A DNA stretch of 64,000 nucleotides from Terrabacter sp. Root85 (GCF_001429185.1 NZ_LMIW01000001.1:582439-646438); one strand, 5' to 3'; shown: positions 40,414 through 58,306, counted from the first letter of the stretch. Translations and numbers: made by a program. The notes: generated by a model not told the origin, from the sequence alone.

Positions 40414-40490
40414 GGCTCCGTCAAACGACGTAGACGCGGGTCAGGCCCACGCGGGTGTCCAGCGGACGCGCGGCAGCGGATCGTCGAGGC

Positions 40491-42123: not shown

Positions 42124-42768
42124 TCACTGGGGGTGGAGCAGGTAGACCGCGGTCTCGAGCAGCAAGGCCACGGTGCGCGACAGCGACGGAGCGCAGAGGT
42201 AGCCGGCATCGAGGTCCACCCGGCGCGGGACGACGTGCTCCAGGTACCACGTCTCGGGGTCCGGGGCGGGCGCGGAGGAGACCGCGGCGAGCGGTGGCTC
42301 GAGCACCCGTGAGTCGCGCATCCTGATCTGCGCCGGTCCAGTCAGTCCCGGTGTGGCCTCGAGCACCCAGCGGCACCCGGACGGGTAGCGGCGCGCCAAC
42401 GCGACCGTCTCGGGCCTGGGGCCGACGAGGGTCATCTCGCCGCGAAGGACGTTGAGCAGCTGCGGCAGCTCGTCGAGCGAGGTGCGCCGGAGCAGGGCCC
42501 CGACCCTCGTGACGCGAGGGTCGCGCCCCATCGTGATGTCGAGACCCTCGCCACCCGAGGTCATGGTGCGCAGCTTGAGGATGGTGAAGGGGCGTCCGCC
42601 CGCGCCGACCCGCTCCTGGCGGAACAGCACGGGCCCCGGGCTCGTCGTGCGGATCGCGACCGCCGCCGCCACGACGACCGGCGCGCTCAGCACGAGGGCC
42701 ACCGCGGCGACCACGACGTCAAGTGCCCGACGAGCGCGGCTGACCCGAGTGGATTCCGTCGTGCTCAG
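42124..42768 (-). CDS. sugar transferase (Bac_transf / polyprenyl-phosphate hexose-1-phosphate transferase, small type)
   Basis: Bac_transf signature (RALDVVVAAVALVLSAPVVVAAAVAIRTTSPGPVLFRQERVGAGGRPFTILKLRTM...DELPQLLNVLRGEMTLVGPRP). Start ambiguous: CTG overlapping the upstream stop, or a GTG 18 codons in. The 566-aa listed ORF is a two-gene read-through artefact. Confidence 0.65.
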   Translation of the reverse strand: MSTTESTRVSRARRALDVVVAAVALVLSAPVVVAAAVAIRTTSPGPVLFRQERVGAGGRPFTILKLRTMTSGGEGLDITMGRDPRVTRVGALLRRTSLDELPQLLNVLRGEMTLVGPRPETVALARRYPSGCRWVLEATPGLTGPAQIRMRDSRVLEPPLAAVSSAPAPDPETWYLEHVVPRRVDLDAGYLCAPSLSRTVALLLETAVYLLHPQ

Positions 42769-43775: not shown

Positions 43776-45058
43776 CGCGGGGTGCCTGCCGTGAGCCGTC
43801 GCACGACGAGCACGGTGCTGACATCGGTGACGAGGTAGGCGACGGCGCTGGCCACGGCTGCCCCGGTCACCCCGAACGACGGGATGAGGGCGAGGTCGAG
43901 TCCGAGTGTCGCGAGCAGGCCGACGGCCTGCAGCACCGAACCGGTGCCGGGACGCCGGGTCCCCAGCAGGTAGCCGCCGGCCAGGCCCCCCGCGGGTGAG
44001 GCGCAGAGGCCGACGGCGATGATGGCGGCCGGCACGACGGACGCGACGAACTCCTGACCGTAGAGGGCCGGCAGCAGGGGTCCCGCGGCGAGCGCCAGCA
44101 CGACGGCACCGACGATGCCCACGCCACCGAGCCACGGCAGCTGTCGACGCACGACCGTCGCGGAGGCCTCCGGCCCGAGGCGGGCGATCCGCGGATAGCT
44201 GACCCAGGTCACCGCGAGCGACGGCAGCCTGACGAGCTCGGCGAACTTCGAGGCCACGGCATACACGCCCAGCGGTGCCGGACCGGCGATGGAGCCCAGG
44301 ACGAGGAAGTCCAGGCGCAGGTTGAGCAGGTTGACCAGGCCGCCGACCTGACCGAGCAGGCCGAACGACACGATGCTGCGGCCGAGCGGGCGGTCGGGAC
44401 GCCCGGTCATCCGCATCCCCCGGCCGTGCACCTGGCGCACGAGACGGGCCCACCCCGCCCCGGCGACGACGACGTCGGCGACGATGAGCACGACGACGAG
44501 CAGCAGGGGCCCGCGCAGTCCGAGCAGCCAGGCGACACCGAAGGCGGGGAGGAAGGCTGCTTCCTCCCCGGCAGTGACCGCGTTGGACCCCTTCCGGTCG
44601 TCGAGCCCCTGGAGGCTCGACTTGGCGACGGCGAGCGGCAGCTGGGTCGCGACACTGACGCCGGCGAGGAGCATGACCAGCGGGCTCGCCGTCGGGAGCA
44701 GGACCGCATGGATGACGGGAACGAGCAGCAGCCACACCGCGGTGCCGATCCCCATGCCGGCGCCGAGCAGCACGAGGATCGTGGGCCACAGCCGCGGGTG
44801 CCCGGCGTGGGGGCCGGCGAGGAAGTAGCCCATCGCACCCGGCAGACCACAGGCGGCGAGGACGCCGACCAGACCCGGCAGGACGCGCAGCAGGGCGAGG
44901 ACCCCGACGTCCTCGGCGCCTCCGACCCGCGCGACGAGGATCGTGCCGATCCCGAGCGCGACCACGGCGACGAGCCGGGCGCCGAGGTTGTCGAGGACGG
45001 CCCGCCCCGGGATGCGGAGGCGACGGGAGGCGTGGCTCGGGTTGAGACGCACCGACAC
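43772..45058 (-). CDS. Wzx-like polysaccharide/oligosaccharide flippase (MOP superfamily)
   Basis: GTG at 45058 with GGGGAGG 7 nt upstream. About 12-14 TM helices, of the 'polysaccharide biosynthesis protein' type. Confidence 0.6.
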   Translation of the reverse strand: MSVRLNPSHASRRLRIPGRAVLDNLGARLVAVVALGIGTILVARVGGAEDVGVLALLRVLPGLVGVLAACGLPGAMGYFLAGPHAGHPRLWPTILVLLGAGMGIGTAVWLLLVPVIHAVLLPTASPLVMLLAGVSVATQLPLAVAKSSLQGLDDRKGSNAVTAGEEAAFLPAFGVAWLLGLRGPLLLVVVLIVADVVVAGAGWARLVRQVHGRGMRMTGRPDRPLGRSIVSFGLLGQVGGLVNLLNLRLDFLVLGSIAGPAPLGVYAVASKFAELVRLPSLAVTWVSYPRIARLGPEASATVVRRQLPWLGGVGIVGAVVLALAAGPLLPALYGQEFVASVVPAAIIAVGLCASPAGGLAGGYLLGTRRPGTGSVLQAVGLLATLGLDLALIPSFGVTGAAVASAVAYLVTDVSTVLVVRRLTAGTPR

Positions 45059-45059
45059 G

Positions 45060-46451
45060 TCATCGCCTCCCCGGAACGGAGGCGGGCAGGACCTCCGGAG
45101 CCGGTCGCCGCGACACGGCCACATCGGCGAGGATCAGGTCGAGACCGGCGACGAGGCCCAGGACCGCCCACAGGTGCCGGAAGTGCAGCACCTCGTAGAA
45201 GAGGCCCGACATGAGGAACGCCGCGCCGAGGGCGGCGAGGAAGTGCGGCGACGGGACGAGCCGCGTCACCGGCCCCGGGTCGCCGCTGCGTCCCCGACCT
45301 CCCTCGGCCACGCCACGTCCCCGGCGTCCCGCGACGCGCGCCAGCCGTGCCGCCACGGACGCGAGCAGGACGACGAGGCCGACGCCTCCGATGAGGCCGA
45401 GCTCGACGAGCGTCGCCACGTAGTCGTTGTGCGCCTCCTTGACGTAGGGAGCAGGGATCGACGCCAGGGCCTCCTTCGTCCGCCCGGGACCGACACCGAC
45501 CAGGGTCCCGTCCCAGAAGAGCCGGACGCCTTCGGAGAAGAGGACCTGCCGGTCCTGGCTCGACGAGTCCCCCCGACCGAACGAGTCGTGCAGGACCGGA
45601 CCACCGGCGGCGGCGCTCGCCTGCACCGACCCCCAGTCGACCGAGGTGACGACCAACCCGGCGGCCGCCGCCAGGACGCACGCGAGCCCGGTCGCGGCGA
45701 TGGCACCATGCGACCGCCATGACCCGACGACGACCCCGACGCCGAGGCCCACCAGCATGCCGAGCATGGCGCCGTTCGACCCGGTGAGGACGGTCGCGAC
45801 GACGAGGAGGAGCACGGTCGCAGCGCGCGCGAGGCGGCGGCGCGGGTGTCGCGAGGCGAGGACGACGAACAGGCAGGCGACGAAGTAGTTGCCGGCGAGG
45901 TTGGGGTCGCCGAAGGTCAGGGCGGACCGCGAGCCGTCCCGGGTGGTCTGGCCGGCGAGCCACGGGATCCCGGCGAGGCGACCGGCCACCAGCAGGCCGG
46001 CGCTGACGATCCCGCTCCAGCACCACGTGACGCACACGAGTCGGACGAGGGAGTGGTCGGCACGCACGGCGTTGGCGATGGTGGCGGCCCAGAGCAGGAG
46101 GAACAGGTCCTGTCCGAGGACCGTCGTCGAGAGGAGGTCCCGGCTGGCGAGCGCGGCGACGGCACCGGCCAGGACCAGGAGCCACATGCCTGCGGCGTAC
46201 GGCACGTGGAGGCGTACGCCGTTGCTCGACAGCCAGAGGAGCACCCCACCCATCGCGAGGAGGATGGGCAGGTCCGCAGGTGAGGTGTTGCCGGGACCGG
46301 TGGGCGTGAGGACCGGCATGCACGCGATGGCTGCGGCGATGAGGAGGCGCACGGACCGTGACGCCGGCACCACGGTCCGGCGCGCCGGCAGCGGTGCGGA
46401 CGCAGCGGCCCGTCCTGTCGTCGTGGGCGCAGCGGCCGCCGTCGTCGTCAC
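45060..46451 (-). CDS. O-antigen ligase / Wzy-like polymerase family membrane protein
   Basis: Wzy_C-type signature (EAHNDYVATLVELGLIGGVGLVVLL) within a polytopic membrane protein. GTG at 46451 with GGAGG upstream, in a GTGA overlap with the upstream stop. Confidence 0.65.
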   Translation of the reverse strand: MTTTAAAAPTTTGRAAASAPLPARRTVVPASRSVRLLIAAAIACMPVLTPTGPGNTSPADLPILLAMGGVLLWLSSNGVRLHVPYAAGMWLLVLAGAVAALASRDLLSTTVLGQDLFLLLWAATIANAVRADHSLVRLVCVTWCWSGIVSAGLLVAGRLAGIPWLAGQTTRDGSRSALTFGDPNLAGNYFVACLFVVLASRHPRRRLARAATVLLLVVATVLTGSNGAMLGMLVGLGVGVVVGSWRSHGAIAATGLACVLAAAAGLVVTSVDWGSVQASAAAGGPVLHDSFGRGDSSSQDRQVLFSEGVRLFWDGTLVGVGPGRTKEALASIPAPYVKEAHNDYVATLVELGLIGGVGLVVLLASVAARLARVAGRRGRGVAEGGRGRSGDPGPVTRLVPSPHFLAALGAAFLMSGLFYEVLHFRHLWAVLGLVAGLDLILADVAVSRRPAPEVLPASVPGRR

Positions 46452-47449
46452 GACCCCACCTCCGCGAGGAGGGACGCGTGGGCGCGGGCGAACGGCGGTG
46501 AGTCGCTCGTCGTCGCCACCTCGCCGAGACCCACGAGCACGGCGTCCCGCCAGGCCGTGGTGCTCGGGTCGCGCCCGAGCGCGGGCGCGATGAAGTCGGC
46601 CACACCGGCGGCATACCACCCCTCGCCCCTCAGCAGATGCCGCACGGGGTCACCCCATGCACCCGCGCGGAGGCCCGCGTGCCCGTGGACCCGGGCACCG
46701 CTCGGGGTGTGCCGGTCGAGGTAGAGCGTGTAGGCGAGGGCGAAACGCACGCGGTCCCACAGTGGGGATCCACCGAAGCGAGCGTGCTCCCAGTCGACGA
46801 CGCCGGTGACCCGACGACCCGTCCGCAGGAGGTTGCCGCACCAGAAGTCGCCGTGGGTGACGTGACCCGTGTCGAGGTCGCCCACCCGAGCCCTGGCGCG
46901 CCGGCACGCCTGCGCCGCCGCCATCCCGGCCTCGTCCGGCCAGCGGCTCTCGAGCGCAGCGGCGCCGTCGACCTCCGGCTGCGGCGGGACCGTGAGGCCG
47001 TGCAGCTGGGAGAGCCACCCGGCCGCCGCGTCGAAGTCGGCCCGCACGTCACGGCGACGGCCCGTGTGGTGCCAGCGGTGGTAGTCGACCGAGAACGGAC
47101 GACCCGACGAGACCGTCGTGACGAGGAACGTGCCGGCCACGGTCTCGTGCAGGGCGAGCAGGCGGGGGACCGTCCCGCCGACGAGACCGGGGTCGAGCTG
47201 CCCCAGCTGATCGAGTGCGGCGGCCTCGGCACGGACCGACCGGGCGGCCCCACCGGTCAGGGCCACCTTCACCGCGAGGACCGGCGTCGTCGCACCGGAG
47301 GGTGTCGCCATGACGACCGCCTTGGGATGGTCGTCCCGCGACATGGCCACGACCGCGAGCCGGACCGTCCGGTCGTCCAGGTGCCGCCGCAGGACGTCCT
47401 CGACGGCCCCGAGGTCGGGGAACGCCGTCTGCCTCGTCGACGTGGTCAT
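46448..47449 (-). CDS. phosphotransferase enzyme family protein (APH/choline-kinase-like kinase fold)
   Basis: ATG at 47449 (MTTSTRQTAFPDL...). Catalytic motif HGDFWCGNLL...VVDWEHARFG (HGDxxxxN...D). ATGA overlap with the upstream stop. Confidence 0.65.
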   Translation of the reverse strand: MTTSTRQTAFPDLGAVEDVLRRHLDDRTVRLAVVAMSRDDHPKAVVMATPSGATTPVLAVKVALTGGAARSVRAEAAALDQLGQLDPGLVGGTVPRLLALHETVAGTFLVTTVSSGRPFSVDYHRWHHTGRRRDVRADFDAAAGWLSQLHGLTVPPQPEVDGAAALESRWPDEAGMAAAQACRRARARVGDLDTGHVTHGDFWCGNLLRTGRRVTGVVDWEHARFGGSPLWDRVRFALAYTLYLDRHTPSGARVHGHAGLRAGAWGDPVRHLLRGEGWYAAGVADFIAPALGRDPSTTAWRDAVLVGLGEVATTSDSPPFARAHASLLAEVGS

Positions 47450-47868
47450 GGTCGGTGGACGATGACCATGCGCCCGGCCACGAGCGGACCGACCCAGCGG
47501 ACGAGGTGGCGGTTCCGGCCGAGGCACGTCGTGGCCGTGATGAGCAGGGATCCGCGGGACCGCCCCGGGGGGACGGTCGCGAAGGCGTTCCAGAACCACG
47601 TCAGGCTCTCGACCGAGTCCTCGACGACGAAGGCTGCCGTCCTCAGGCCCGGCAGCACGACGAGCTCACGGTCGACGACGAGGCCGGCGTCCCGTGCGAG
47701 ACGTGTCAGGCGCCTGGCGCTGAGCCGCCGCCCGTCGAGGAGGACGAGCCGCTTCGCCGACGACACTCCCGCGATCGCCGCCGCCGAGCCCCGTCGGGAG
47801 CCGCGGACCTCGACCACCGGCGTGCCACCCGGCACGAGCAGGGCCAGCGCGGCCTCGAGGGCGCTCAC
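47446..47868 (-). CDS. hypothetical protein (140 aa)
   Basis: GTG at 47868 with GGGGAGGG upstream, in a GTGA overlap with the GT4 stop. No recognisable family. The listed ORF 47446..48681 has a long antisense-like extension. Confidence 0.4.
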   Translation of the reverse strand: MSALEAALALLVPGGTPVVEVRGSRRGSAAAIAGVSSAKRLVLLDGRRLSARRLTRLARDAGLVVDRELVVLPGLRTAAFVVEDSVESLTWFWNAFATVPPGRSRGSLLITATTCLGRNRHLVRWVGPLVAGRMVIVHRP

Positions 47869-49040
47869 GACGCCCTCCCCCACCCGGGCACCGACGTCAG
47901 CAGCGGCCGGCGGACCTCGGGGTCGCCGGTGTAGACCTCCTGCAGGGTCGCGCCCAGGGTGCTCGCGTCGTAGCGGGTGCCGAGCTGGGCCCTGGCCCGC
48001 TCCGCCCAGGCAGCGGCCTGTCTCGGGTGGGTGAGTGCGTGGTCGAGCGCCCGGGCCAGCTGGTCCGGGTCCTGGGGCGCCACGAGCAGACCGGTCACTC
48101 CGGGGACCACGACGTCGGAGACCGCGTTCACCGACGTCGCGACCACGGGTATGCCGCACGCCTGGGCTTCGACGATGGCGCACGGCAAGCCCTCGTAGCG
48201 GCTCGACATGGCGAAGACGTCGAACGCCGGCAGCAGCTCGGCCACGTCCGTGCGGTGACCGAGCAGCAGCACGCGACGTTCGAGGCCCGACGCCTGCGCT
48301 CGACGGGCGGTCTCCTCCAGGAGGGGACCGCCACCGACCCAGACGAGCACGGCCGGCGTCGCCATCCGGGCCAACGCCTCGAGCATGACCTCCGGCGCCT
48401 TCTGGAAGTCCATCCGTCCGACCGTGCCGACGACCGTCGCGTCGGCGGGCAGCCCGAGCAGCGCCCGCGCGCGCAAGCGTGACGCCGGCGACGCGGTGAC
48501 CGACGCGGGCTCGACCGCCGGACCGATCGTGACGAGCTGCTCGGGGCGGACCACCTTCCGCCGCAGCGCCTCGACCGCGACGCCGGTGCCGATGGCGAGA
48601 TAGGCGTCCGTGACGTGCGAGAGCTCGCGCTCGGTACGGATGTAGGCGTGCCGCACGGCAGCGGACTGGAAGTCGTGCCAAGGGAATCCGTGCAAGGTGT
48701 GCACGATGCGGGGCACGCCTGCTCTCGAGGCCGCCACGCGTCCCAGGACGCCCGCCTTGGCGCTGTGGGTGTGCACGACGTCGAAGCCCTCGGCCCTGAG
48801 CAGCCGCGAGATCGACCGGAAGGCCCTGGCGTCCTGGGCCGGGTTGATCGGTGAGACGAGCTCCGGCACGACGACCACGTCGACGCCGCTCGAGCGGGCG
48901 ACGTCGAGGAGAGCGTCACCCGAGCCGACGACGAGAGTGCTCGCGTACAGCTCTCGGGGCAGGCTCACCGCCCCGCGCACGGCGACCCCGCCGGCCCCGG
49001 CGACGCACCGGGTGATGATGTGCGCGACACGCTGCGTCAT
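47865..49040 (-). CDS. glycosyltransferase family 4 (GT-B fold)
   Basis: ATG at 49040 (MTQRVAHIITR...). C-terminal GT4 motif (EGLPCAIVEAQACGIPVVATSVNAVSDVV). ATGA overlap with the upstream stop. Confidence 0.8.
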   Translation of the reverse strand: MTQRVAHIITRCVAGAGGVAVRGAVSLPRELYASTLVVGSGDALLDVARSSGVDVVVVPELVSPINPAQDARAFRSISRLLRAEGFDVVHTHSAKAGVLGRVAASRAGVPRIVHTLHGFPWHDFQSAAVRHAYIRTERELSHVTDAYLAIGTGVAVEALRRKVVRPEQLVTIGPAVEPASVTASPASRLRARALLGLPADATVVGTVGRMDFQKAPEVMLEALARMATPAVLVWVGGGPLLEETARRAQASGLERRVLLLGHRTDVAELLPAFDVFAMSSRYEGLPCAIVEAQACGIPVVATSVNAVSDVVVPGVTGLLVAPQDPDQLARALDHALTHPRQAAAWAERARAQLGTRYDASTLGATLQEVYTGDPEVRRPLLTSVPGWGRAS

Positions 49041-50095
49041 GCCCGCGCTCCTGTCATCCCCGGGTTCGTCGCTCGCCCGGCTCGCGCGGCCTGCTCGGCG
49101 CGGTCGACGAGCTCGACGAGGGACGTCCCCGGACGTGCCGGGAGGACGACCTCGACGCAGTGGAGGGACCGGGCGAGGCGCTCCGACTCGCCCACGATCG
49201 ACGGATGCGCCGGGCCGAGGCCGGTGCCCAGTGCCAGCGTCGCGGCGAAGGCCCAGTACCGGCGCAGCTCGCCCGCGGCGTACGTGCCCGTGGCGAGGGC
49301 TCTCGCGGCGACCACCGGCGGGACCGGCCTCACCGAGGGTCGCGCCCCGGAGCCACGTCGGAGCACGAGGAGCAGGGACGGCGTCATGGCGGGCAGCGTG
49401 CCGTCCCACGGCTGCTCCACCCGGCCGTGGGGCATCGACCGACGGCCGGCCCGGACCGGGCCCGCGTCGACGCGTCGGGGCTCACGCAGCCCGTAGATCA
49501 TCGCCCCGTCGTAGGTGCAGAGGTTGTCGCTGACCGACGCGCCCTGGTCCGGCCCGAGGCCGGCGACGAGCGTCGACTTGCCCACGCCCCCCGGCCCGGC
49601 GAGGAGCACGCCCAGACCTGCGACCTGCGCCGCCGAGACGTGCAGCGGAACGGCTCCCCCGACACCGGCCCACCACAGGGTCGGGTACTGCAGGAGCGCG
49701 GCACGCCAGAGCAGCTCGGTGCGCCCGGGAGCCACGAGGCGCAGGGCGCGGTGGGAGGGCCCCGGGCGGGAGCGTGCCGTCACCGAGACTGCCCTCGGCG
49801 ACGGCTCGACGAGCAGGTCCAGACCGCTCGCGCAGGCGTCGGTGAGCACGACGCGACGGCCGTCTGCGAAGGCACCGCGGGTGAGCGGCGTCAGGCCGTG
49901 CACCTCGAACGGCTCGCGAGAGGACTCCAGCTGCACGACGACATCGGCGTCCCGGCCCGGCTGCGGCACCTCGGCCCGGTGCGGCGCCTCCGCTCGAGGA
50001 GGGTCGCCGAGGGCGCGGTCGATGACCTGCGACCAGCCGCGTGGCACCGACCGGACCTCCAGGGTCAGGCCGCAGGACTTGGCGCGCCGGCTCAC
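49037..50095 (-). CDS. HprK-like / P-loop (Walker A) putative kinase
   Basis: GTG at 50095 with GGAGG 5 nt upstream, overlapping the Wzz-like stop (GTGA). Walker A LLAGPGGVGKSTLVAGL embedded in an HPr-kinase-C-domain-like context. Family assignment tentative. Confidence 0.5.
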   Translation of the reverse strand: MSRRAKSCGLTLEVRSVPRGWSQVIDRALGDPPRAEAPHRAEVPQPGRDADVVVQLESSREPFEVHGLTPLTRGAFADGRRVVLTDACASGLDLLVEPSPRAVSVTARSRPGPSHRALRLVAPGRTELLWRAALLQYPTLWWAGVGGAVPLHVSAAQVAGLGVLLAGPGGVGKSTLVAGLGPDQGASVSDNLCTYDGAMIYGLREPRRVDAGPVRAGRRSMPHGRVEQPWDGTLPAMTPSLLLVLRRGSGARPSVRPVPPVVAARALATGTYAAGELRRYWAFAATLALGTGLGPAHPSIVGESERLARSLHCVEVVLPARPGTSLVELVDRAEQAARAGRATNPGMTGARA

Positions 50096-51444
50096 GGCAT
50101 CCTCCACATCTTGTGGCTGCTCAGGGCCCCGTGGTCGACGCGACGTGGCTCGGGGACGCCGTCGGCCGGATCCACCGGGATCTCGGGGGTGACCTCCGTG
50201 AGGGGGGTGATGGGGGGACGGTGGACCCGGCCACCCTCCGCGAGCGTCTGCCGGTCGATGAGCCACCGGCGCCGGAAGGTGAGCACGCCGACGACGGGCC
50301 AGTCCATCACCGCGGCGGTGCGGGCCAGCTCCTCGAGGCGGCGCTGCGCCTCGACGGTCGGGCTGAGCACGATCACGACGGGGTCGGCAGGGCGACCGAC
50401 GTCCTCGGCCGGCCGCGCGACCGTCGCGTCGGGGGCGTGGTCGACATGCAGGCCGGTGAGCGCCTCGAGCTCGGCGCAGACGCGCGCAGCCCACCGGTCG
50501 TGCTTCCTCTCGACCGGGAGCAGCAGCAACGGCCGCCCGGTGAACCGGGCGGCGAGCACGGCTGCAGCACCGCCGAACTCACGCAGGGCGCGGGCACCCC
50601 GTGGTCCCCCGAGGTCGAGCGTGGGCAGGTGCCCGAGGAGCGGGGCGTGCAGCTCGGCCGCCACCCACCGACGGCCCCGGACCCGGGGGTGGAGTGCCTC
50701 GAGGATCGCCACGAGGCCCAGCGCGAGGATCAGCGCGGCCAGACCCGCCAGAGCCACGAGCTGGCCGACCTTTGGGCCGACCGGATCAGAGGACGCCGTC
50801 GCGGGATCGAGCAAGCCGATGCTCGATCGCTCCGACGCCGCCAGGACGAGGTCGGAGCGCTGCCGCAGCAGGTCCGTGAGGGTCGGCGCGTCCGCCGCGA
50901 TCCGCGCCTGCAGCTCGAGTACCGCGCCCGGGGCAGCCGCCGCCAGCTGGTGGATCAGGCCGTCTCGCTCCTTCGTGAAGCGGCTGATCTGGTGGTCGAG
51001 AGCGGTCATCTTCACGGCGTCGCTCTGGTGAGCGGTGTTGGCGTACTTGAGAGCCTGCTGGACGAGCGAGTTCGCGACGATGACCGAACGGTCCGCGTTG
51101 CCCGTGGTGACGAGGACGTCGTTGACCGTGGAGACGCCCACTCGGTTCACGACGATCGAGTGGGTGGCGAAGGGAGTCGGGTCGCCCTCGAGCCCAGCTG
51201 CAGCCATGGCGTGACGCACCGTGTTGGGGGTCGTGATCACACCCTGGAGCCACTGTGTCGCAGCGTCCGCCTGGACATTGGTGCTGGCGAGACCACCGGA
51301 CATCTGGACCCGCGCCGAGGCCTGGTACTGCAGGTCCTGGTTGGTGGCGTAGACGCCCGCCGCCAATGACGCCACCAGGACCAGCAACCCGATCAGCCAC
51401 CAGTAACCACCGATCATGCGGCGGAAGGCTTCATCGATGCGCAT
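50092..51444 (-). CDS. Wzz-like polysaccharide co-polymerase (chain-length determinant family) with a non-kinase C-terminal domain
   Basis: N-terminal TM helix (WWLIGLLVLVASLAAGVYA), a periplasmic helical region, a second TM helix (LVALAGLAALILALGLVAILEAL), then a 170-aa cytoplasmic domain with no Walker A. Confidence 0.6.
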   Translation of the reverse strand: MRIDEAFRRMIGGYWWLIGLLVLVASLAAGVYATNQDLQYQASARVQMSGGLASTNVQADAATQWLQGVITTPNTVRHAMAAAGLEGDPTPFATHSIVVNRVGVSTVNDVLVTTGNADRSVIVANSLVQQALKYANTAHQSDAVKMTALDHQISRFTKERDGLIHQLAAAAPGAVLELQARIAADAPTLTDLLRQRSDLVLAASERSSIGLLDPATASSDPVGPKVGQLVALAGLAALILALGLVAILEALHPRVRGRRWVAAELHAPLLGHLPTLDLGGPRGARALREFGGAAAVLAARFTGRPLLLLPVERKHDRWAARVCAELEALTGLHVDHAPDATVARPAEDVGRPADPVVIVLSPTVEAQRRLEELARTAAVMDWPVVGVLTFRRRWLIDRQTLAEGGRVHRPPITPLTEVTPEIPVDPADGVPEPRRVDHGALSSHKMWRMP

Positions 51445-51472
51445 GTCTTCTCTCTCTCAAGACGTCCGGGAA

Positions 51473-52936
51473 TCAGTGCAGGACGGCGAACGGCCGCATC
51501 CGCGCCACCGGGCGGATGATCCGGTGCGAGGACAGGACCGACATCGCCGCGTTGACGCCGGCGTCGTCGAGGTGCGCCGTCTCGCTCGGAGCGGTGTCGT
51601 CGTAGCGGAACCGGAGCGTGGAGCGCCCCGCGGGATCGGGCTGGGAGGCCCCGCTCGTCGCGAACTGGTCGATGACGGTGCCCGCCCCGTGGCAGGCGGA
51701 GTGGAGGCTCTGGCCGCTGGACGGGCCGGCGACCGCGAGGTACGACGACGTCCGGTGCGTCCCGGGCAGCAGGACCGCCTGACCCGTCTGCGCGAAGGTG
51801 GTCCCGGGCACCATGAGGTGCGCCGGGTAGGCGCGGCACGAGTTGTGGCGGTGCACGACGGCACGTTCGCCGGCGACGTCCTCCTCGTAGATCGAGTTGT
51901 GGGGCGAGTCGACGACGAGCCTGCCCGGGGCGCCGCCGAAGGCGTCCGCCGCCAGCTGCCGGAGTGCCTGGTAGGTCGCCATGCGGAAGGCGAAGCCGTA
52001 GTTCATCGCCGCCGCGTTGGCGAGCATGAGCCGCTTCCCCTCGTCCGAGTCGAGACCGACCGGCGGGCACGCCGAGCTGAAGAAGAGGCGCATCCGCTCG
52101 CGGACCTGCTGGGTGGATCGCGCCGTGGCGAGGTGGAACAACGGCTTCTGGACCGCCATCGCCGCCCTCATGACGCGGGCGGTGTCACGCCGGCGGGCGA
52201 ACAGGTGACCGATCTCGCCCGTCAGCACGCCGCCGCCGGCGTGGTACTGCAGCGTCACCTGGCCCTCGTGGACGCCGAGCTGCCGGGCGGCGACCGGGTC
52301 GAGGATCTCCTCGACCACCTGCAGCTCGACGAAGTGGTTCGTCGGACCCACGGTGCCGAAGCGGAGCCGGGCCAGCTGCCACGTGAGCGCGGGGACCTCG
52401 GCGACGAGACGCTCGCTGCCGCCCCACGCCGCGAGGTCGATCCGGCCGCTCTCCTCCACCCGCTCGAGCTCGGCGGGGTCGACCCCGTTCCGCTCGACGG
52501 CGAAGCCGGCGCCCTCGGTGGCGGCGGCGACCACGTCCCGATACGACAGGTCGCGCCGGTTGGTCGTGGGATAGGGGTAGCGCTCGCGCACCCGGCGGTA
52601 GAAGTCGCTGACGGCGGCATCGCTCGGTCGGTCGCAGCCCAGGGCGATGAGCGCCATGCCGCAGTTGACCGAGGAGCTCGTCAGCGTCGGTCGGATCGTC
52701 CCTGCCGTCGCCACGGCGATGCTCGAGGGCATCTCCATGGCCGACTTGTGGTGGAAGTCGGGAAGCACGACCGGTGGCGCCACGAGGTCCATCCCGAGCG
52801 TGGCGGAGTTCAGCGACGCGACGAGGTCTCGGTCCGCCGGGACGCGGTCGCTGTCGAACACGCGTGCCTCGTGGTGGCCTGCCGGCCGGACCGACGTCGG
52901 CTCCGCGGCGCGACCGGCGATGACGGTGATCTTCAT
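51473..52936 (-). CDS. RtcB-family (RNA-splicing ligase-like) protein
   Basis: RtcB hallmark motifs are present: SVNCGMALI (metal-binding Cys), GPTNHFVELQ (the GxxNHFxE motif), VVHRHNSCRA (cf. HRKGA) and ACHGAGTV (cf. the HGAGR nucleotidyl-His motif). 487 aa. Confidence 0.6.
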   Translation of the reverse strand: MKITVIAGRAAEPTSVRPAGHHEARVFDSDRVPADRDLVASLNSATLGMDLVAPPVVLPDFHHKSAMEMPSSIAVATAGTIRPTLTSSSVNCGMALIALGCDRPSDAAVSDFYRRVRERYPYPTTNRRDLSYRDVVAAATEGAGFAVERNGVDPAELERVEESGRIDLAAWGGSERLVAEVPALTWQLARLRFGTVGPTNHFVELQVVEEILDPVAARQLGVHEGQVTLQYHAGGGVLTGEIGHLFARRRDTARVMRAAMAVQKPLFHLATARSTQQVRERMRLFFSSACPPVGLDSDEGKRLMLANAAAMNYGFAFRMATYQALRQLAADAFGGAPGRLVVDSPHNSIYEEDVAGERAVVHRHNSCRAYPAHLMVPGTTFAQTGQAVLLPGTHRTSSYLAVAGPSSGQSLHSACHGAGTVIDQFATSGASQPDPAGRSTLRFRYDDTAPSETAHLDDAGVNAAMSVLSSHRIIRPVARMRPFAVLH

Positions 52937-52970
52937 GGGGCGAACCTGTCCTCGTGGGGTGCGGGCTGCA

Positions 52971-54464
52971 TCAGTAGTCGTCCGGGTACGGGGCGGACGT
53001 CTGGAGGGCGAACACGTCGCCGGGTTCGGGGCGGTAGACCGGCAGCACCGCAGCGAGGGCGCGGCGCACGTCGTCCGCCGCGTTCCGCCGGGCGGCGTCG
53101 TAGAGCGCGAGCATCAGGGCGTCGAAGTGCTCGTGCACGGGGACGGCCTGCGCGCCGAAGATGCGTGGATGACTCGTGGGGAGGCATTCCTCGTCGTCGC
53201 TGAACAGCGACTCGTGGAGCTTCTCCCCGGGACGGAGCCCGGTGAACCGGATGTGGACGTCGCGGACGCCGAGCTGCCGTGCGAAGTTGGCCACGAGGTC
53301 GACGATCCGGACGGGTGAGCCCATGTCGAGCACGAACGTCTCCGAGCCGGTCGTCAGGTGCGCGGCCTCGAGCACGAGCCCGACCGCCTCCTCGATCGTC
53401 ATGAAGTACCTCGTGACGTCCGGATGCGTCACGGTCACGTCCCGTCCGGCCGCCATCTGGGCCACGAGCACGGGAAGGAGCGAGCCGCGGCTGCCGAGCA
53501 CGTTGCCGAAGCGTACGGCCGAGACCACGGTGCGGCCCCCCGCGTGCTTCTTGACCACCTGCTCGGCCAGGGCCTTGGTCGCTCCCAGGACGGAGGTCGG
53601 GTCAGCGGCCTTGTCGGTGGAGATGGCGACGAAGCGCTCGACTCCCGCCTCGACCGCGGCGACCAGCACGTTCTCGGTGCCCTGGACGTTCGACTTCACG
53701 CCCTCGCACGGATGCTCCTCGAGCATCGGCAGGTGCTTGAGCGCCGCCGCGTGGAAGACGACCTGCGGCTTGTACTGCCCCATGACCTGCCGCATGCGTT
53801 CGGCGTCGCGGATGTCGGCCACGACGGTGTCGTGCGACTCGAGGAACGCCTCTCCCCGCAGCTCGAGCTGGAGGCGGTGGAGGTTGGACTCGTCGTGGTC
53901 GAGCATGACGAGGCGGTGGGGCACGAAGCCGTTGACCTGGCGGCACAGCTCGCTGCCGATCGAGCCACCGGCCCCGGTCACGAGCACCGTTCTGCCCGTG
54001 ATGATCTCGGCAACCTCCGGTGACGCGACGTGGAGCTCGCAGCGGCCGATCAGGTTGGCGACGTCGAGCGAGCACATGTCCGTGCCCACGACGTCGCGTC
54101 GCAGCAGGGCCACGAAGGACGGCAGCCTGCGGACACTCGCCCCGACGCGGGCGGCGGCGGTGGCCAGCCTCGTCACCTCGGCCTCGGGAAGCCCCGGGAT
54201 CGCGAGGACGACGACGTCGATCCGCTCGGCCGTCGCGACCCGCAGGACGTCGGCCAGCCGGCCGAGCACGGGGAGGTGGCGAACCCGGCGCTTGTCGGGG
54301 TCGTCGTCGAGGAAGCCCACGGGACACAGCCCGAAGTCGTCGACTCGCTGCAGGTCCCGCGCGAGAGCCTTGCCTGCTGCCCCGGCTCCGACGATGAGGG
54401 TCCGGAGGCTGAGTCCCGGACCGGCGCTGCCGAGCCCCGGCAGGGTGACCAGCTGTGACGTCAT
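52971..54464 (-). CDS. polysaccharide biosynthesis protein CapD/PglF-like (membrane-associated NDP-sugar 4,6-dehydratase)
   Basis: N-terminal CoA-binding-like domain. SDR core VLVTGAGGSIGSELCRQ...FHAAALKHLPMLEEHP. 497 aa. Confidence 0.85.
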   Translation of the reverse strand: MTSQLVTLPGLGSAGPGLSLRTLIVGAGAAGKALARDLQRVDDFGLCPVGFLDDDPDKRRVRHLPVLGRLADVLRVATAERIDVVVLAIPGLPEAEVTRLATAAARVGASVRRLPSFVALLRRDVVGTDMCSLDVANLIGRCELHVASPEVAEIITGRTVLVTGAGGSIGSELCRQVNGFVPHRLVMLDHDESNLHRLQLELRGEAFLESHDTVVADIRDAERMRQVMGQYKPQVVFHAAALKHLPMLEEHPCEGVKSNVQGTENVLVAAVEAGVERFVAISTDKAADPTSVLGATKALAEQVVKKHAGGRTVVSAVRFGNVLGSRGSLLPVLVAQMAAGRDVTVTHPDVTRYFMTIEEAVGLVLEAAHLTTGSETFVLDMGSPVRIVDLVANFARQLGVRDVHIRFTGLRPGEKLHESLFSDDEECLPTSHPRIFGAQAVPVHEHFDALMLALYDAARRNAADDVRRALAAVLPVYRPEPGDVFALQTSAPYPDDY

Positions 54465-55648
54465 CGCGTGCCCCCGATCCGCCAGAGCGCCGCACAGACC
54501 TCGTCGACGTCGTCATCGGTGAGGTTCTGGTCGAAGGGCAGCGACAGGGTGGTGGCGAAGACGGCGTCGGCGCCGGGAAGCCCGCCGGCAGGCACGACGC
54601 AGTGCTCGACGTGCCACGTCAGCCGGTGCAGGGGGATGAAGTGCACCGAGGTCCCGATGCCCTGGTCGTTGAGCCGGTCGATGAGCTCGTCGCGGGCGAC
54701 CGGGAAGCCTGAGTGGACCCGCACCGCGTAGAGGTGCCAGGCGTGTCGGCCCTCGACCGGGCGCGGCGGCAGGCTGACCCAGGGGAGGCTGCTGAGCTGC
54801 GCGTCGTAGCGCGCCGCCACCTCGCGACGGCGTGCCTGGTCGGTGTCGAACCGGCGCAGCTGCGCACGACCGATCGCTGCCTGGACGTCCGTGAGGTTCG
54901 CCTTGAGGCCGTCGTCGGCCACGTCGTAGCGCCAGCTCGCCCCGGGCGAGTAGCGGCGCCAGGCGTCGCGGGACATCCCGTGCAGCCGGGTGCGGGCCAT
55001 GACCTCGGCGAAGTCCTCGTCGAGGGTCGTCACCATGCCGCCCTCCCCGATCGCCAGGTTCTTCGTGGCGTAGAAGCTGAAGCAGGTCGCGCGGGAGATC
55101 GACCCGACCGGTCGCGTCCCGACGCACGTGCCGAGCGCGTGCGCGGCGTCCTCGATGACGTGGTCGAGTCCGATCCCGGCTGCCGCGGCGGCGGCCTCCA
55201 CGTCGACCGGGTTGCCGCCGAGGTGCATGACGACCATGGCCGACACGCCACCGACGTCGCGCACGGCAGCGCGGATGTGCTCCTCGGCCGGGACGGCCGT
55301 CCAGGGGTCGACATCGACGAGGACCGGCACGAGGCCGGCATGGGTGATGGCTCCGGCTGCGCCGCAGAACGTGTTCGTCGACATCAGCACGCGCGACCCA
55401 CGGGCCAGACCCAGGCCCCGCAGAGCGAGCTCCAGTCCCGCGGTGCATGAGCTGACCGCGACGCCCCGGGCGGCACCGACGTGGTCGGCGAACTCTCGCT
55501 CGAAGTCGGCGACCTGCTGCCCCGTCGTCACCCACCCCGACTCGAGGACCTGGGCGACGGCGGAGCGGGCATCGGGACCGATCACCGTGCGCGCGAAGGG
55601 AATCGAGCGAGCCGCGGCCACTCGTGGTGCGGATGTGTGGACCGTCAT
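54461..55648 (-). CDS. DegT/DnrJ/EryC1/StrS family aminotransferase (sugar aminotransferase)
   Basis: ATG at 55648. PLP-Lys region (SFYATKNLAIGEGGM). 395 aa. ATGA overlap with the CapD start. Confidence 0.85.
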   Translation of the reverse strand: MTVHTSAPRVAAARSIPFARTVIGPDARSAVAQVLESGWVTTGQQVADFEREFADHVGAARGVAVSSCTAGLELALRGLGLARGSRVLMSTNTFCGAAGAITHAGLVPVLVDVDPWTAVPAEEHIRAAVRDVGGVSAMVVMHLGGNPVDVEAAAAAAGIGLDHVIEDAAHALGTCVGTRPVGSISRATCFSFYATKNLAIGEGGMVTTLDEDFAEVMARTRLHGMSRDAWRRYSPGASWRYDVADDGLKANLTDVQAAIGRAQLRRFDTDQARRREVAARYDAQLSSLPWVSLPPRPVEGRHAWHLYAVRVHSGFPVARDELIDRLNDQGIGTSVHFIPLHRLTWHVEHCVVPAGGLPGADAVFATTLSLPFDQNLTDDDVDEVCAALWRIGGTR

Positions 55649-55740
55649 GGCTACCCCTGGACGTGAAGAGACTGCGAACGTGGGCGCGGGTGGTGCCCGC
55701 TCCCTCGACGGTAGGAACAGGGCGGCAGCCCCACACCCGC

Positions 55741-56454
55741 TCAGCGCCCGAGTCCGCCTACGCCATTCGCGGTAGACGCTCCCTCGGCACTCCGACCGAG
55801 GAGCCCACCGCGGCGGGCCTCCGCCACGGCCGCGAGCGTCGAGTGGACCTGGAGCCGCCGCAGGATGGCTCCCACGTGCGTGCGGACGGTGTTGGGCGAC
55901 ATGTCGAGCAGCCGTCCCGTCTCGTCCCGCGAGCACCCGTCCATGAGGCAGCGCAGGACGTCCTGCTGACGCGGAGTCAGGCGCAGGAGAAGGCGGTTCG
56001 ACGCGTCCGACGTCGTCGGGACGCTCTGTGGGGCCAGCACGGCGGTCATCCGGGACACCGGCATGAACACCTCGTGCGCCCCGACCTCGCGAACGGCGGC
56101 CACGAGTCGGTCGAGCGACTCGTCGCTGCACACCCATCCACGGATGCCGGACTCGAGGGCGTCACGCACGAGGTCGGCCGCGCCCGCCTCGGTCAGGAGC
56201 ACGATCCCCAGGTCGTGATCGCGTGCGAGTGCAGTGCGCACGAGGTCGGACGACAGCTCCTGGCGCGTGACCGCGTGCAGGACGAGCACGTCCACCCGGC
56301 CCGAGCCGAGGAGCTGGGGCAGACCCGCCGACGTGCTCGTGCGGCCCACCACCCGCATGCCGGGTCGCGTCTCGAGGGCCTCCGCCAACGCCTCCAGTAC
56401 CAGCTGCTGTCGGGCGAAGACCGCAACCCGAACAGGTTGGGGCGCCATCGACAC
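55741..56454 (-). CDS. LuxR-family regulator with atypical (probably non-phosphorylatable) receiver domain
   Basis: C-terminal LuxR HTH (LTPRQQDVLRCLMDGCSRDETGRLLDMSPNTVRTHVGAILRRL). Receiver-like N-domain with the acidic pocket replaced (VAVFARQQ..., DVLVLHAVT). Confidence 0.6.
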   Translation of the reverse strand: MSMAPQPVRVAVFARQQLVLEALAEALETRPGMRVVGRTSTSAGLPQLLGSGRVDVLVLHAVTRQELSSDLVRTALARDHDLGIVLLTEAGAADLVRDALESGIRGWVCSDESLDRLVAAVREVGAHEVFMPVSRMTAVLAPQSVPTTSDASNRLLLRLTPRQQDVLRCLMDGCSRDETGRLLDMSPNTVRTHVGAILRRLQVHSTLAAVAEARRGGLLGRSAEGASTANGVGGLGR

Positions 56455-56533
56455 AGCATCGTTCGGGACGGTGCCTCGCGCACCCGCCGTCTGGACGACC
56501 TCCGGCTACGTCACATGGCCGACCGTGTCGTCC

Positions 56534-57184
56534 TCAGGCGCGCAGTCGCGCCGGCCAGATCGCCGCGCTCCCGTGGTCGGCGAGCAGCGCTGCAGCCTCG
56601 AGCCGGGAGTGGACCCCGAGCTTGGTGAGCAGGTTCTGCACGTGCGTGCGCGCCGTGCTGTTCTGTACGCCGAGCCGGTGGGCGATCTGCTGCGTCGCCA
56701 GTCCCCTCGTGATGCACCACAGCACGTCCCACTCCCGGTCGGTCAGGAAGCGGAGGGCCCAGAGCGGGTCGTGGGCGGACGGAGGCAGGAAGGCGCGCTG
56801 CAGCAGCGTCGCCTCCACGGCGACCTGCCCCTCGACGGCCCGGTCGAGCATGAGGCAGATCGCATCGAGGGACATCGCCTTGCAGAGGAAGCCGGCAGCA
56901 CCGACGGAGAGGGCCCCGACGACCGCCTGGGGGTCGGCCGTCGCCGAGAGGACGACGACCTTGGTGCCCGGATGGCGTGCCGTCAGGACGCGCACCGCCT
57001 CGAGGCTCGTCCCGTCCGGGAAGTGCAGGTCGATGAGGCACACGTCGGGTGCGTACTCGGCGACCGCGGCGACGGCGGCGTCGGGCGCCAGGGTCAGCGC
57101 CACGACGTCGTGGCCGCGGGCCTCGAGGGAGGCGCCGAGAGCCTCGAGCAGGAGGCGATGGTCGTCGCAGACCACGATCCTCAT
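56534..57184 (-). CDS. NarL/LuxR-family response regulator
   Basis: ATG at 57184 (MRIVVCDDHRLLLEAL...CLIDLHFPDG). LuxR HTH (LTDREWDVLWCITRGLATQQIAHRLGVQNSTARTHVQNLLTKL). ATGA overlap with the kinase stop. Confidence 0.8.
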   Translation of the reverse strand: MRIVVCDDHRLLLEALGASLEARGHDVVALTLAPDAAVAAVAEYAPDVCLIDLHFPDGTSLEAVRVLTARHPGTKVVVLSATADPQAVVGALSVGAAGFLCKAMSLDAICLMLDRAVEGQVAVEATLLQRAFLPPSAHDPLWALRFLTDREWDVLWCITRGLATQQIAHRLGVQNSTARTHVQNLLTKLGVHSRLEAAALLADHGSAAIWPARLRA

Positions 57185-57861
57185 CGCGCCTCGGCCCACG
57201 GCAGGAGTGGCAGCTCGACCGTCGCGACAGCGCCCCCGTGGACACCGTTCTCGAGCCGGAGCCGTCCACGACACTCCTCGAGGACAGCTGCCACCGTCAC
57301 GAGACCGATGGAGTGCTGGGGCACGAGGCGCCCCAGCCCCGGCCCGTCGTCGACGACGGTCAGCACGGCCCACGGGGCGTTCGCACCGACGGCGACCGCC
57401 ACGTGCCCGTCCGTTCCTGCGGCCCGAGCAGCGTTGTCCAGCAAGCAGATCAACGCGCGGACGAGCGAGATGCGCGACGCGAGCACGGGCACGGGCCCCT
57501 CCGCCTCGATCGTGACCGTGGACGACGTGACGAGGGCACAGCACGACACCGCGTACGTCGCGACGTCCCTCAGGTCGAGCAGTCCCGGGTCGTCTCCGGG
57601 TGCGTCCCCCAGGACGGATCCCACGAGCTCGGTGAGCCAGGCGACCTCGTGCTGGATCCGGCTCAGGCGCTCCTTGCTGTCGAGGACCTGCGGGTCGGCG
57701 AGCAGGCTGATCGTGGCCAACGGCTGGATGAGGTCGTGGCACAGCGCGCGCATCGCGTCATCGCCACCCGGACGACGCGGCGCCCGGTGACCACCCTCGA
57801 TGAGTACGTCGCGACGAGGCTGCGCCTCACGACGGATGTAGTCCGACTTTCGGTTCGACAT
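57181..57861 (-). CDS. cytoplasmic (sensor-less) histidine kinase
   Basis: H-box (MRALCHDLIQPLATI). HATPase_c (LLDNAARAAGTDGHVAVAV...VVDDGPGLG...GLVTVAAVLEECRGRLRLE). No TM helices and no sensor domain. 226 aa. Confidence 0.7.
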   Translation of the reverse strand: MSNRKSDYIRREAQPRRDVLIEGGHRAPRRPGGDDAMRALCHDLIQPLATISLLADPQVLDSKERLSRIQHEVAWLTELVGSVLGDAPGDDPGLLDLRDVATYAVSCCALVTSSTVTIEAEGPVPVLASRISLVRALICLLDNAARAAGTDGHVAVAVGANAPWAVLTVVDDGPGLGRLVPQHSIGLVTVAAVLEECRGRLRLENGVHGGAVATVELPLLPWAEAR

Positions 57862-58306
57862 GCGGTCCCCCCGGACTTGTCTTGTGTACTCAGGCCGAGA
57901 ACCCCGCTCGGCCCGGGTCAGGCGGTGACACGGCAGAGCACCGTCGCGTCCGGCGACGGATCATCACCCATCCCAACGGGTGACGTGACGGGATCTGACC
58001 GACGCGGCGGCAGCCGCCGGGCGCCCCAGCACCCGACGCACATCCGACCCCCCAGGTCGGAAGGCTGCCGTCTCACTGTCATCACTCAGGTCCAGAACTG
58101 TAGGAGCCAAGGCCCACTCCCGGCCCTCCGCCGGTCGTGGACCTAGTGGTGAGGAGTCGGCGACCTCCTGCCGTTTCACGGTAACACCGGGTGACGGCGA
58201 CTGAGCACGATCGAGCGAGGATCGCCGAGTTCCCTTGCACGAACTGGACATCCGACACAACTCTCCCGTTCGCAGGCGCAAGAACGCCGACGAGGAGATC
58301 CTCGGC

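Follow-up and report, generated by a model that had tools for sequence, protein, structure and literature searches.

Organisation of the locus

We analysed a 64,000-nucleotide stretch of the Terrabacter sp. Root85 genome (GCF_001429185.1 NZ_LMIW01000001.1:582439-646438), hereafter the window, which has a G+C content of ~72% and in which reading frames were picked by third-position G+C. Positions 55741-57861, counted from the first letter of the window, hold a cassette of three minus-strand genes encoding a minimal soluble histidine kinase (57181-57861, 226 amino acids), a canonical NarL/FixJ-type response regulator (RR; 56534-57184, 216 amino acids), referred to below as the middle RR, and an atypical, aspartate-less NarL-type regulator with a pseudo-receiver (55741-56448, 235 amino acids from a conserved ATG). 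The cassette stands directly upstream of a Wzx/Wzy-type glycan cluster on the same strand (42124-55648), whose first gene encodes a DegT aminotransferase (54461-55648), followed in order by genes for a CapD/PglF-like dehydratase, an RtcB-like protein, two proteins with no Pfam match, a GT4 glycosyltransferase, an APH-like kinase, a Wzy_C polymerase/ligase, a flippase and a Bac_transf initiating transferase. The conserved distal end of the cluster is marked by a plus-strand gene for a protein with a metallo-beta-lactamase (MBL) fold and a Rieske domain (MBL-Rieske), which together with its promoter occupies 40427-42080.

The start codon of the middle RR and the stop codon of the kinase overlap in an ATGA at 57184-57181, indicating translational coupling as the first-pass annotation of this DNA had proposed, and its placing of the last regulator's stop (55741-55743) 92 bp upstream of the first biosynthetic gene (DegT ATG, 55648) is likewise correct. 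It had drawn that regulator from 55741 to 56454; the stop of this gene stands, but a conserved ATG at 56448, with which the public annotation agrees, is a likelier start than the GTG at 56454. Three minus-strand intergenic regions are considered below: the promoter region of the atypical regulator (56449-56533), the glycan-operon promoter and 5' untranslated region (55649-55765, reaching into the regulator gene), and a 445-bp non-coding region 5' of the kinase (57862-58306). Third-position G+C was 0.85-0.88 in the three regulatory genes and 0.92-0.96 in the flanking biosynthetic and housekeeping genes.

The kinase is a minimal core with a shortened ATP lid

In Pfam the kinase matched HATPase_c alone (34.7 bits, cutoff 26.4), with no match to HisKA or HisKA_3, and NCBIfam gave weak CreC, EnvZ and PhoR matches spanning the H box to the G1 box. 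A profile built from 23 kinase homologues matched the dimerisation and histidine-phosphotransfer (DHp) plus catalytic and ATP-binding (CA) cores of EnvZ, KdpD, ZraS, CpxA and HK853 (E = 1e-19 to 1e-12). The first-pass description of the protein as HisKA plus HATPase_c therefore holds in Pfam for its second half only, the DHp domain being visible solely through profile and fold comparison. In the 23-sequence alignment H42-D43, N143, DNAxRAAG and DDGPGxG were invariant; H42 lies within the H box CHDLIQPL and aligns with the H box of EnvZ, N143 marks the N box, and G1 (DDGPG) occupies residues 171-175. The AlphaFold model (predicted local distance difference test, pLDDT, 73) showed a disordered basic segment (residues 1-32), a two-helix hairpin (33-54 and 62-83) and an alpha/beta CA domain, and its best Foldseek matches were the cores of HK853, DivL, YycG and EnvZ.

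Of the features that define class-I kinases, the protein has the phospho-accepting histidine in helix 1 of the DHp hairpin and the N box and G1 of the Bergerat fold, but lacks the F box, the full ATP lid and a G2 box of the form GxGxG; its G2 reads HSIGL, in which only G186-L187 is invariant. The stretch from G1 to G2 is 6-8 residues against 23 in EnvZ, the lid is ~17 residues shorter than that of EnvZ, and the profile alignment breaks between G1 and G2, from which we take the F box and most of the lid to be absent. This shortening had escaped the first-pass annotation, as had the lineage-specific degeneration of the third regulator and that regulator's own promoter, both described below. On its sequence we take the protein for a true kinase core, whose lid is unusual and whose conserved motifs would support activity.

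No transmembrane helix was found in the kinase, the maximum 19-residue Kyte-Doolittle value being 1.73 in an Arg-containing stretch that runs into the N box, and with just 41 residues N-terminal of the histidine there is no space for a PAS or GAF domain. The open reading frame (ORF) has no possible upstream extension, and the ATG and a GGGGGG ribosome-binding site are kept in orthologues, which argues that the short form is the real product. Hydropathy, the limits of the ORF, this conserved start and the AlphaFold model all speak against a hidden sensor or transmembrane segment, and the first-pass picture of a 226-residue kinase free of transmembrane, PAS and GAF segments is upheld. Its further proposal, that the operon answers to an intracellular signal, is another matter: it follows only from the kinase being cytoplasmic, and the sequence identifies no signal.

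A search for relatives returned 410 cluster representatives at E <= 1e-30; among the best 150, almost every one had a length of 180-290 amino acids. Across 70 genome loci the distance from the upstream stop codon to the histidine had a median of 50 residues, Gln occupied position H+4 in 66, and the G1-G2 gap was 8 residues in 52. The uniform short length and the short stop-to-histidine distance indicate that the absence of a sensor is a trait of the family and not a truncation. Homologues from Kribbella retain a complete G2, GTGHGL. A search of the literature available to us found nothing specific to this kinase family or to this glycan cluster.

The short lid raises the possibility that the protein acts mainly as a phosphatase, or as a ChpT-type histidine phosphotransfer protein that relays or drains phosphate on behalf of both regulators, with the true sensor kinase encoded elsewhere. 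Such a role would suit the G1-G2 gap, the missing F box, the degenerate G2 and a weak NCBIfam match to ChpT over the H-box region, and ChpT has the same size and DHp-plus-CA-like layout as the window protein. To our knowledge, however, ChpT-type proteins have neither an N-box Asn nor G1/G2 motifs, whereas the N-box Asn and DDGPGxG are invariant in this family and Kribbella has a full G2; kinases of the NarX/DesK class are lid-poor and active, and no second kinase is conserved beside the cassette. We therefore regard this alternative as unlikely and continue with the kinase as one that would phosphorylate its coupled RR.

Two further features of the kinase were noted. Its N-terminal tail (residues 1-36, 57751-57861) is disordered and variable, yet many homologues keep a basic pattern (MS-x-x-K ... 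RRR), and the tail might serve as a short motif for interaction or localisation. Redox sensing through the Cys beside H42 was also considered; this residue is Cys in 45 of the 70 loci and in Kribbella and Leu in 23, so that it is not a family-wide feature and was kept only as a weak candidate.

The non-coding region upstream of the kinase (57862-58306) is poorly conserved outside close relatives and could be a long leader or contain a distant promoter. It holds a conserved box, CCCGGTGTTACCGTGAA (TACCGTGAA at 58183-58175), ~314 nt before the kinase ATG, which resembles TACCGTCGA of the DegT promoter. There is no convincing ORF in this stretch, and the composite of two boxes described below (M1/M2) was not found in it. 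Rfam gave no credible match in this region or in the other gaps, all scores being far below the gathering thresholds, and a riboswitch or other known RNA upstream of the kinase was rejected on these scores.

A canonical and a degenerate regulator

The middle RR matched Response_reg (67 bits) and GerE (57 bits) and has the pocket D7, D8, D, S and K (DDDSK); it thus shows both parts of the NarL/FixJ definition, a receiver with DD, D, S/T and K and a C-terminal GerE/LuxR helix-turn-helix (HTH). Its match to the NarL equivalog model (E = 1.5e-28) falls under that model's cutoff. The third protein matched GerE (46 bits), with Response_reg at 22 bits, under the 30-bit cutoff. When it was aligned with NarL and CheY, the positions of NarL D13, D14, D59, S87 and K109 were occupied by A12, R13, His, Thr and Ser, respectively. 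Its AlphaFold model (pLDDT 83.6) has a complete (beta-alpha)5 receiver fold and a four-helix HTH, and using Foldseek the model matched full-length LiaR, VraR, RcsB, DesR and NarL (probability 1.00). A second LuxR-type regulator that keeps the receiver fold but has lost the DD/D pocket, as proposed in the first pass, is therefore what both the alignment and the model describe.

A pseudo-receiver has been defined as a domain that keeps the receiver fold and misses at least one of the five pocket residues, with an aspartate-less subclass that has no acceptor Asp (PMC12632262, PMC4395418). By these definitions the third protein, going by its alignment and predicted structure, is an aspartate-less atypical response regulator with a pseudo-receiver. 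Loss of the DD, D and K residues makes its phosphorylation very unlikely, and with the acceptor and the metal ligands missing its activity would be independent of phosphorylation. Its close homologues (at least 48% identity over the full length), where named, come from Terrabacter, Terracoccus, Intrasporangium and Humibacillus, and nearly all close homologues have no receiver call in Pfam. Within this clade the acceptor position is H, S, A, D or V, the pattern expected of a position that is no longer used. The recognition helix S-x-NTVRTH is conserved in the lineage of the third gene and differs from that of the middle RR.

A regulator of this kind could instead be controlled by a small-molecule ligand, of which c-di-GMP (the ligand of VpsT) and a pathway intermediate (the case of JadR1) are examples, and then the ligand and not the kinase would be the real input to the cluster. 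Pseudo-receivers of the LuxR/CsgD type that control polysaccharide genes can bind c-di-GMP, VpsT structures are among the fold matches of our model, and ligand binding is listed as a possible mechanism for pseudo-receivers (PMC12632262). Against this, the VpsT-type motif W[F/L/M][T/S]R is absent, the sole Trp lying in GWVCSDE, no conserved pocket or ligand-related gene was identified, and nothing separates ligand control from constitutive activity. Ligand control is thus quite improbable, and we return to a regulator that acts without phosphorylation.

The degenerate copy is derived and lineage-specific

In a genome scan, relatives of the kinase turned up at 193 loci, of which 80 were kept for comparison and 79 yielded both the kinase and the adjacent RR; many Dermatophilaceae have the cassette, as does Kribbella. 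A third LuxR-type gene follows the kinase-RR pair in the same order in 67 of the 79, parted from the RR by a conserved promoter-like gap of 85-250 bp, and the middle RR has the pocket DDDSK in 70. The third gene itself is canonical (DDDTK or DDDSK) at 49 loci, including those of Pedococcus, Phycicoccus, Knoellia and Kribbella, and degenerate at the other 18, which belong only to the Terrabacter/Intrasporangium lineage and a few others. For 16 degenerate copies the downstream genes could be recognised, and in each case DegT-CapD comes immediately after the regulator; the remaining two are at a contig end (locus L080) and in an apparently disrupted gene (L056).

The atypical regulator of the window shares 37-39% identity with canonical third genes against 29% with its own neighbouring RR, and degenerate copies within the clade are 46-61% identical to it. 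In the receiver half, identity between the window and Pedococcus was 30% for the third gene and 56% for the RR, and in a pair of canonical loci (L035 and L061) these values were 44% and 56%. The closer relation to canonical third genes than to the RR, together with the faster divergence of the receiver, indicates that the pocket was lost secondarily in one lineage. Residues of helix alpha1 that determine partner specificity were also compared, with degenerate copies sharing 2-3 of 5 with the middle RR and canonical copies mostly 1 of 5, a difference too weak to interpret. The window contains a further NarL-type regulator-like ORF (23817-24503, plus strand), ~29-30% identical to the cassette regulators and with no adjoining kinase of the minimal type.

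The cassette and the glycan cluster

The gene order kinase-RR-third gene-DegT-CapD-RtcB is found in Terrabacter, Terracoccus, Humibacillus, Intrasporangium, Nostocoides, a metagenome-assembled genome (MAG) of Phycicoccus, and Kribbella, the last from a different order. In ~45 loci of the Pedococcus, Phycicoccus and Knoellia types, by comparison, the cassette has no glycan genes alongside; there it sits between uvrB-TerC-EamA-MBL and MDMPI-GH15-uvrA, and uvrA/uvrB synteny is absent from the 64-kb window. In L061, the Phycicoccus MAG, the cassette stands between the uvr-side MBL gene and the glycan cluster, an arrangement which indicates that the cluster behaves as if inserted or deleted immediately after the cassette.

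Dactylosporangium and Jatrophihabitans have the same cluster (DegT, CapD, GT4, RtcB, APH, Wzy_C, flippase, Bac_transf and, divergently oriented, MBL-Rieske). In front of it both genomes have just one regulator, which is canonical and of the third-gene type, and no middle RR. Beyond MBL-Rieske, and divergent from it, both have a small HATPase_c gene, which in Jatrophihabitans encodes a 229-residue minimal kinase with the H box FHDIQHEV at about residue 24. We conclude from this arrangement that the minimal kinase and the lineage of the third-gene regulator are old companions of the cluster.

Adjacency might none-the-less reflect genome rearrangement only, with the cassette regulating something else. 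The ~45 loci with no glycan genes by the cassette and the different chromosomal position of the window copy speak for this, but the adjacency recurs in two orders, L061 joins the uvr-side MBL gene, the cassette and the cluster, in distant actinobacteria the cluster is still bordered by a third-gene-like regulator and a minimal kinase, and the architecture of the regulator's promoter is repeated at two cluster promoters. Accidental neighbourhood is, on this evidence, highly improbable. The regulatory link to the glycan operon drawn in the first pass gains support both from the synteny between Terrabacter and Kribbella and from this common promoter architecture.

Several other observations concern the cluster. 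Its best-conserved gene (51473-52936, minus strand) encodes the RtcB-family protein (Pfam, 162 bits), which retains an intact metal-binding Cys motif and an intact SACHGAG, the latter with the nucleotidylated His; identities are 63-98% over the range from Terracoccus to Kribbella, the protein has more than 1600 homologues at E <= 1e-30, and it lies inside the same cluster in Dactylosporangium, Jatrophihabitans and Pedococcus (L086, L087 and L088). This puts an RNA-ligase-type enzyme within a Wzx/Wzy cluster. The MBL-Rieske protein, with its MBL fold and Rieske [2Fe-2S] domain, is a conserved distal border of the cluster and is 56% identical in Dactylosporangium. A conserved MBL partner of the kinase was considered and rejected, the product of the 223-residue MBL gene that adjoins the cassette in Pedococcus being unrelated to the cluster MBL-Rieske protein (E = 0.99). 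The two proteins with no Pfam match are encoded at 50092-51444 and ~49037-50100 (both minus strand); the former resembles the N-terminal 160 residues of the membrane protein that opens the Dactylosporangium cluster (29% identity) and may be a component of the chain-length or co-polymerase type.

Three promoters share one architecture

Upstream of the atypical regulator, on the minus strand, we identified a box GACGTAG (M1, 56512-56506), a box CGGGTG (M2, 56486-56481) and a -10-like GATGCT (56460-56455). The same series recurs on the minus strand before DegT, as GGCGTAG (55764-55758), CGGGTG (55739-55734) and TACCGT(CGAGG) (55713-55708), followed by a GC hairpin (55700-55686), a GGGG ribosome-binding site and the ATG at 55648, and on the plus strand before the MBL-Rieske gene, as GACGTAG (40427-40433), CGGGTG (40452-40457) and GATCGT (40479-40484) with the ATG at 40491. 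The common architecture is GRCGTAG-N18/19-CGGGTG-N20/21-'-10', with M1 and M2 25-26 nt apart from start to start and M2 20-21 nt from the -10. In the 64-kb window there are three copies of the composite CGTAG-N17-20-GGGTG where 0.31 would be expected, a count reached in none of 100 shuffles, and all three sites lie in promoters of this cluster, oriented with their genes. Single motifs were uninformative alone, as TACSGTSRA occurred 3 times against 1.05 expected, CGGGTGYG 16 against 20 and TGRCGTAG 9 against 1.5; TGRCGTAG is enriched in coding DNA, and we give weight only to the composite and to where it lies.

Across 13 orthologues the 92-bp gap before DegT keeps CGGGTGTG right after the regulator stop, TTCCTAnnGTCGAG, and, ahead of the ribosome-binding site, a small GC hairpin. 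Conservation is higher still in the gap that separates the atypical regulator from the RR, with TGACGTAG, TCGTCCAGAC, GGGTG(T/C)G and then GATGCT 6 bases before the ATG at 56448, and since there is also no Shine-Dalgarno sequence its transcript is probably leaderless. The MBL-Rieske start at 40491, confirmed by alignment with the Dactylosporangium orthologue, likewise lies 6 bases after GATCGT, and here too the transcript, on sequence spacing, is probably leaderless. The first-pass annotation had taken 55649-55740 as the operon promoter region, which is right for M2 and the -10 but not for M1, which lies inside the last codons of the regulator. There the codons N-G-V-G carry the GGCGTAG box, and the Val codon within it is GTA in 13 of 13 orthologues, a codon that makes up 1.5% of Val codons in 24 window genes. 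The tail concerned (residues 219-235) is predicted to be disordered and yet is conserved in the clade, apparently at least in part because the ORF overprints this upstream element of the DegT promoter.

At most Dermatophilaceae loci GRCGTAG is conserved near position -64 of the third gene, canonical and degenerate alike, and it lies upstream of DegT in Kribbella and Nostocoides at the same 44-nt distance to TAsCGTCG. It is also present in the promoter gaps of Dactylosporangium and Jatrophihabitans (L086 and L087), genomes that lack the middle RR, and it is most economically assigned as a candidate operator for regulators of the third-gene lineage. CGGGTG, which overlaps the -35 position, could, more speculatively, be a site for the middle RR or for the polymerase. 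Two other loci have CGTAS-N42-46-TASCGTCG after the RtcB gene and just ahead of the gene that comes next in the cluster (L061, 8385-8442; L071, 6398-6455), which suggests an internal promoter; the window gap at this position is only 28 bp. A simple terminator scan gave terminator-like matches only on the opposite (plus) strand.

These boxes bear on whether the atypical regulator does anything at all, since it could be a decaying or neutral remnant, a repressor or an anti-activator, with phosphorylated middle RR alone switching the cluster. In favour of this, its receiver half has changed more quickly than the same half of the neighbouring RR, its acceptor position varies in the clade, and CGGGTG is present in taxa with the middle RR but not in L086 and L087, which lack it. 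However, all orthologues have an intact gene, conservation is strong in the HTH and in the beta5-alpha5 region (GWVxSDEP, LVAAV..V.AH), AlphaFold models the fold with high confidence, the gene has its own conserved promoter, and GRCGTAG tracks the third-gene lineage where the middle RR is missing. We consequently doubt this explanation, to about the same degree as that of a kinase acting mainly as a phosphatase, and retain a functional atypical regulator.

Regulatory model

We propose, as a modestly probable reading, that the atypical regulator activates the glycan cluster independently of phosphorylation and regulates its own gene, with the kinase-RR pair supplying the remaining signal input. 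The soluble class-I kinase (DHp and CA domains with a shortened lid) would autophosphorylate H42 and serve its coupled canonical RR, a step we infer from the conserved H, N and G1 motifs and the coupling of the genes. The third gene would descend from a normally phosphorylatable second NarL-type regulator, the RR3 lineage, that accompanied the cluster across Actinobacteria; the Terrabacter/Intrasporangium copy has lost four of the five pocket residues, and would have lost the phosphorylation switch with them. Made from its own, probably leaderless, promoter, this protein would most likely bind GRCGTAG at its own, the first glycan gene's and the MBL-Rieske promoters, giving positive autoregulation and activation of the cluster, binding suggested by the way the box follows the RR3 lineage into genomes with no middle RR. 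Input from the kinase-RR pair might then reach the same promoters at CGGGTG, or through a mixed complex of the RR and the atypical regulator, which is speculative.

Several points weigh against this proposal. The cassette is not strictly tied to the cluster, as its placement between uvrB and uvrA, with no adjacent glycan genes, in most Pedococcus, Phycicoccus and Knoellia genomes makes clear; in at least one such genome, a Pedococcus MAG, the cluster is found on another contig than the cassette. With an ATP lid ~17 residues short and the degenerate G2 HSIGL, the kinase could be weak or mainly a phosphatase. GRCGTAG could be bound by the middle RR, by both regulators or by neither; TGRCGTAG alone is over-represented in the coding DNA of the window, and a simple scan found no sigma-70-type consensus promoter. 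Kinase activity, phosphotransfer, DNA binding and transcription starts we infer throughout from sequence.

A further version, which is possible but which we do not expect, is an AND gate in which the kinase phosphorylates the middle RR only and the GRCGTAG-bound pseudo-receiver either recruits, or is completed by, phosphorylated RR at CGGGTG, or docks on the DHp domain and sets the activity of the kinase. If so, a regulator that has lost its own phospho-site would stay under kinase control through its paralogue, and the canonical and degenerate cassettes of sister genera would be a natural before-and-after pair for the origin of a pseudo-receiver.

How pseudo-receivers switch is an acknowledged open question (PMC12632262), for which this locus is a tractable case, with a canonical third regulator in Pedococcus, Phycicoccus and Kribbella set against a degenerate one in Terrabacter and Intrasporangium, defined candidate operator boxes, and an easily scored output in the surface glycan cluster. 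The analysis also newly defines a large family of ~220-residue histidine kinases that lack an input domain and have a short ATP lid, and a glycan cluster that is conserved in several actinobacterial orders, always with an RtcB-like ligase. Even if the system proves to be ordinary, a usable regulon prediction for the glycan cluster remains.

Comparison with known systems

The kinase resembles EnvZ, HK853 and CpxA in its H box, where HDLxQPL compares with HExxT/NPL of HisKA, and in its N and G1 boxes and fold, but unlike these proteins the whole window kinase is a core only, with no transmembrane, HAMP or PAS segments, and it has Gln in place of the Thr/Asn of class-I kinases at H+4. The short distance between G1 and G2 and the NarL-type partner recall the DesK/NarX class.

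Control of a surface-polysaccharide operon by two regulators is also the business of RcsB/RcsA in enterobacteria, where a phosphorylatable NarL-type regulator and a LuxR-type partner activate the operon from a box upstream of the -35, and RcsB structures are among the fold matches here. However, RcsA is not known to have a receiver-like domain, the Rcs input is a complex phosphorelay with membrane sensors, and there is no sequence relationship with the cassette regulators past the family level. VpsT and CsgD share with the atypical regulator a receiver-like domain with no working phospho-pocket, a LuxR HTH and control of matrix polysaccharide; the weak CsgD and EpsA scores in NCBIfam lie far below the cutoffs and the fold similarity to VpsT is weak, and, in contrast to those proteins, the regulator here lacks the c-di-GMP motif, has no c-di-GMP genes nearby and belongs to a kinase-RR cassette.

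BldM and WhiI of Streptomyces, a typical and an atypical NarL-type regulator, form a mixed dimer (PMC4125116), and like the cassette regulators they are two actinobacterial proteins of the NarL/FixJ type, one with a typical and one with an atypical pocket. They act on promoters as homodimer and as mixed dimer, whereas here there are only two boxes 25-26 bp apart in three promoters, which is suggestive; they are orphan, non-adjacent, not linked to a kinase and devoted to developmental control, whereas the regulators here belong with a glycan cluster. In CmrRST of Clostridioides difficile, a kinase, a typical RR and an aspartate-less RR are encoded in one operon, and the atypical RR is thought to act without phosphorylation, with mixed dimers and control by expression level proposed and the mechanism unresolved (PMC12548384, PMC12632262); for pseudo-receivers embedded like this in an otherwise ordinary two-component operon, the mechanism is called unknown in a review (PMC12632262). 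Control by expression level and by mixed dimers are both realistic here in the light of CmrRST (PMC12548384) and BldM/WhiI (PMC4125116).

CmrRST is like the present cassette in that a kinase, a typical regulator and an aspartate-less regulator are encoded together, and the three genes of the present cassette are also co-inherited. CmrRST differs in that CmrR and CmrT belong to the OmpR family and not to NarL/FixJ, and in that CmrT retains the T and K and has a phosphomimetic Glu, whereas four of the five pocket residues are replaced here (A, R, H and S). Furthermore, the kinase here has no input domain of any kind, and the atypical regulator has its own promoter and canonical orthologues in sister lineages. 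Taken against these systems, the cassette is a well-conserved, unstudied variant of two-component signalling and not a new kind of system.

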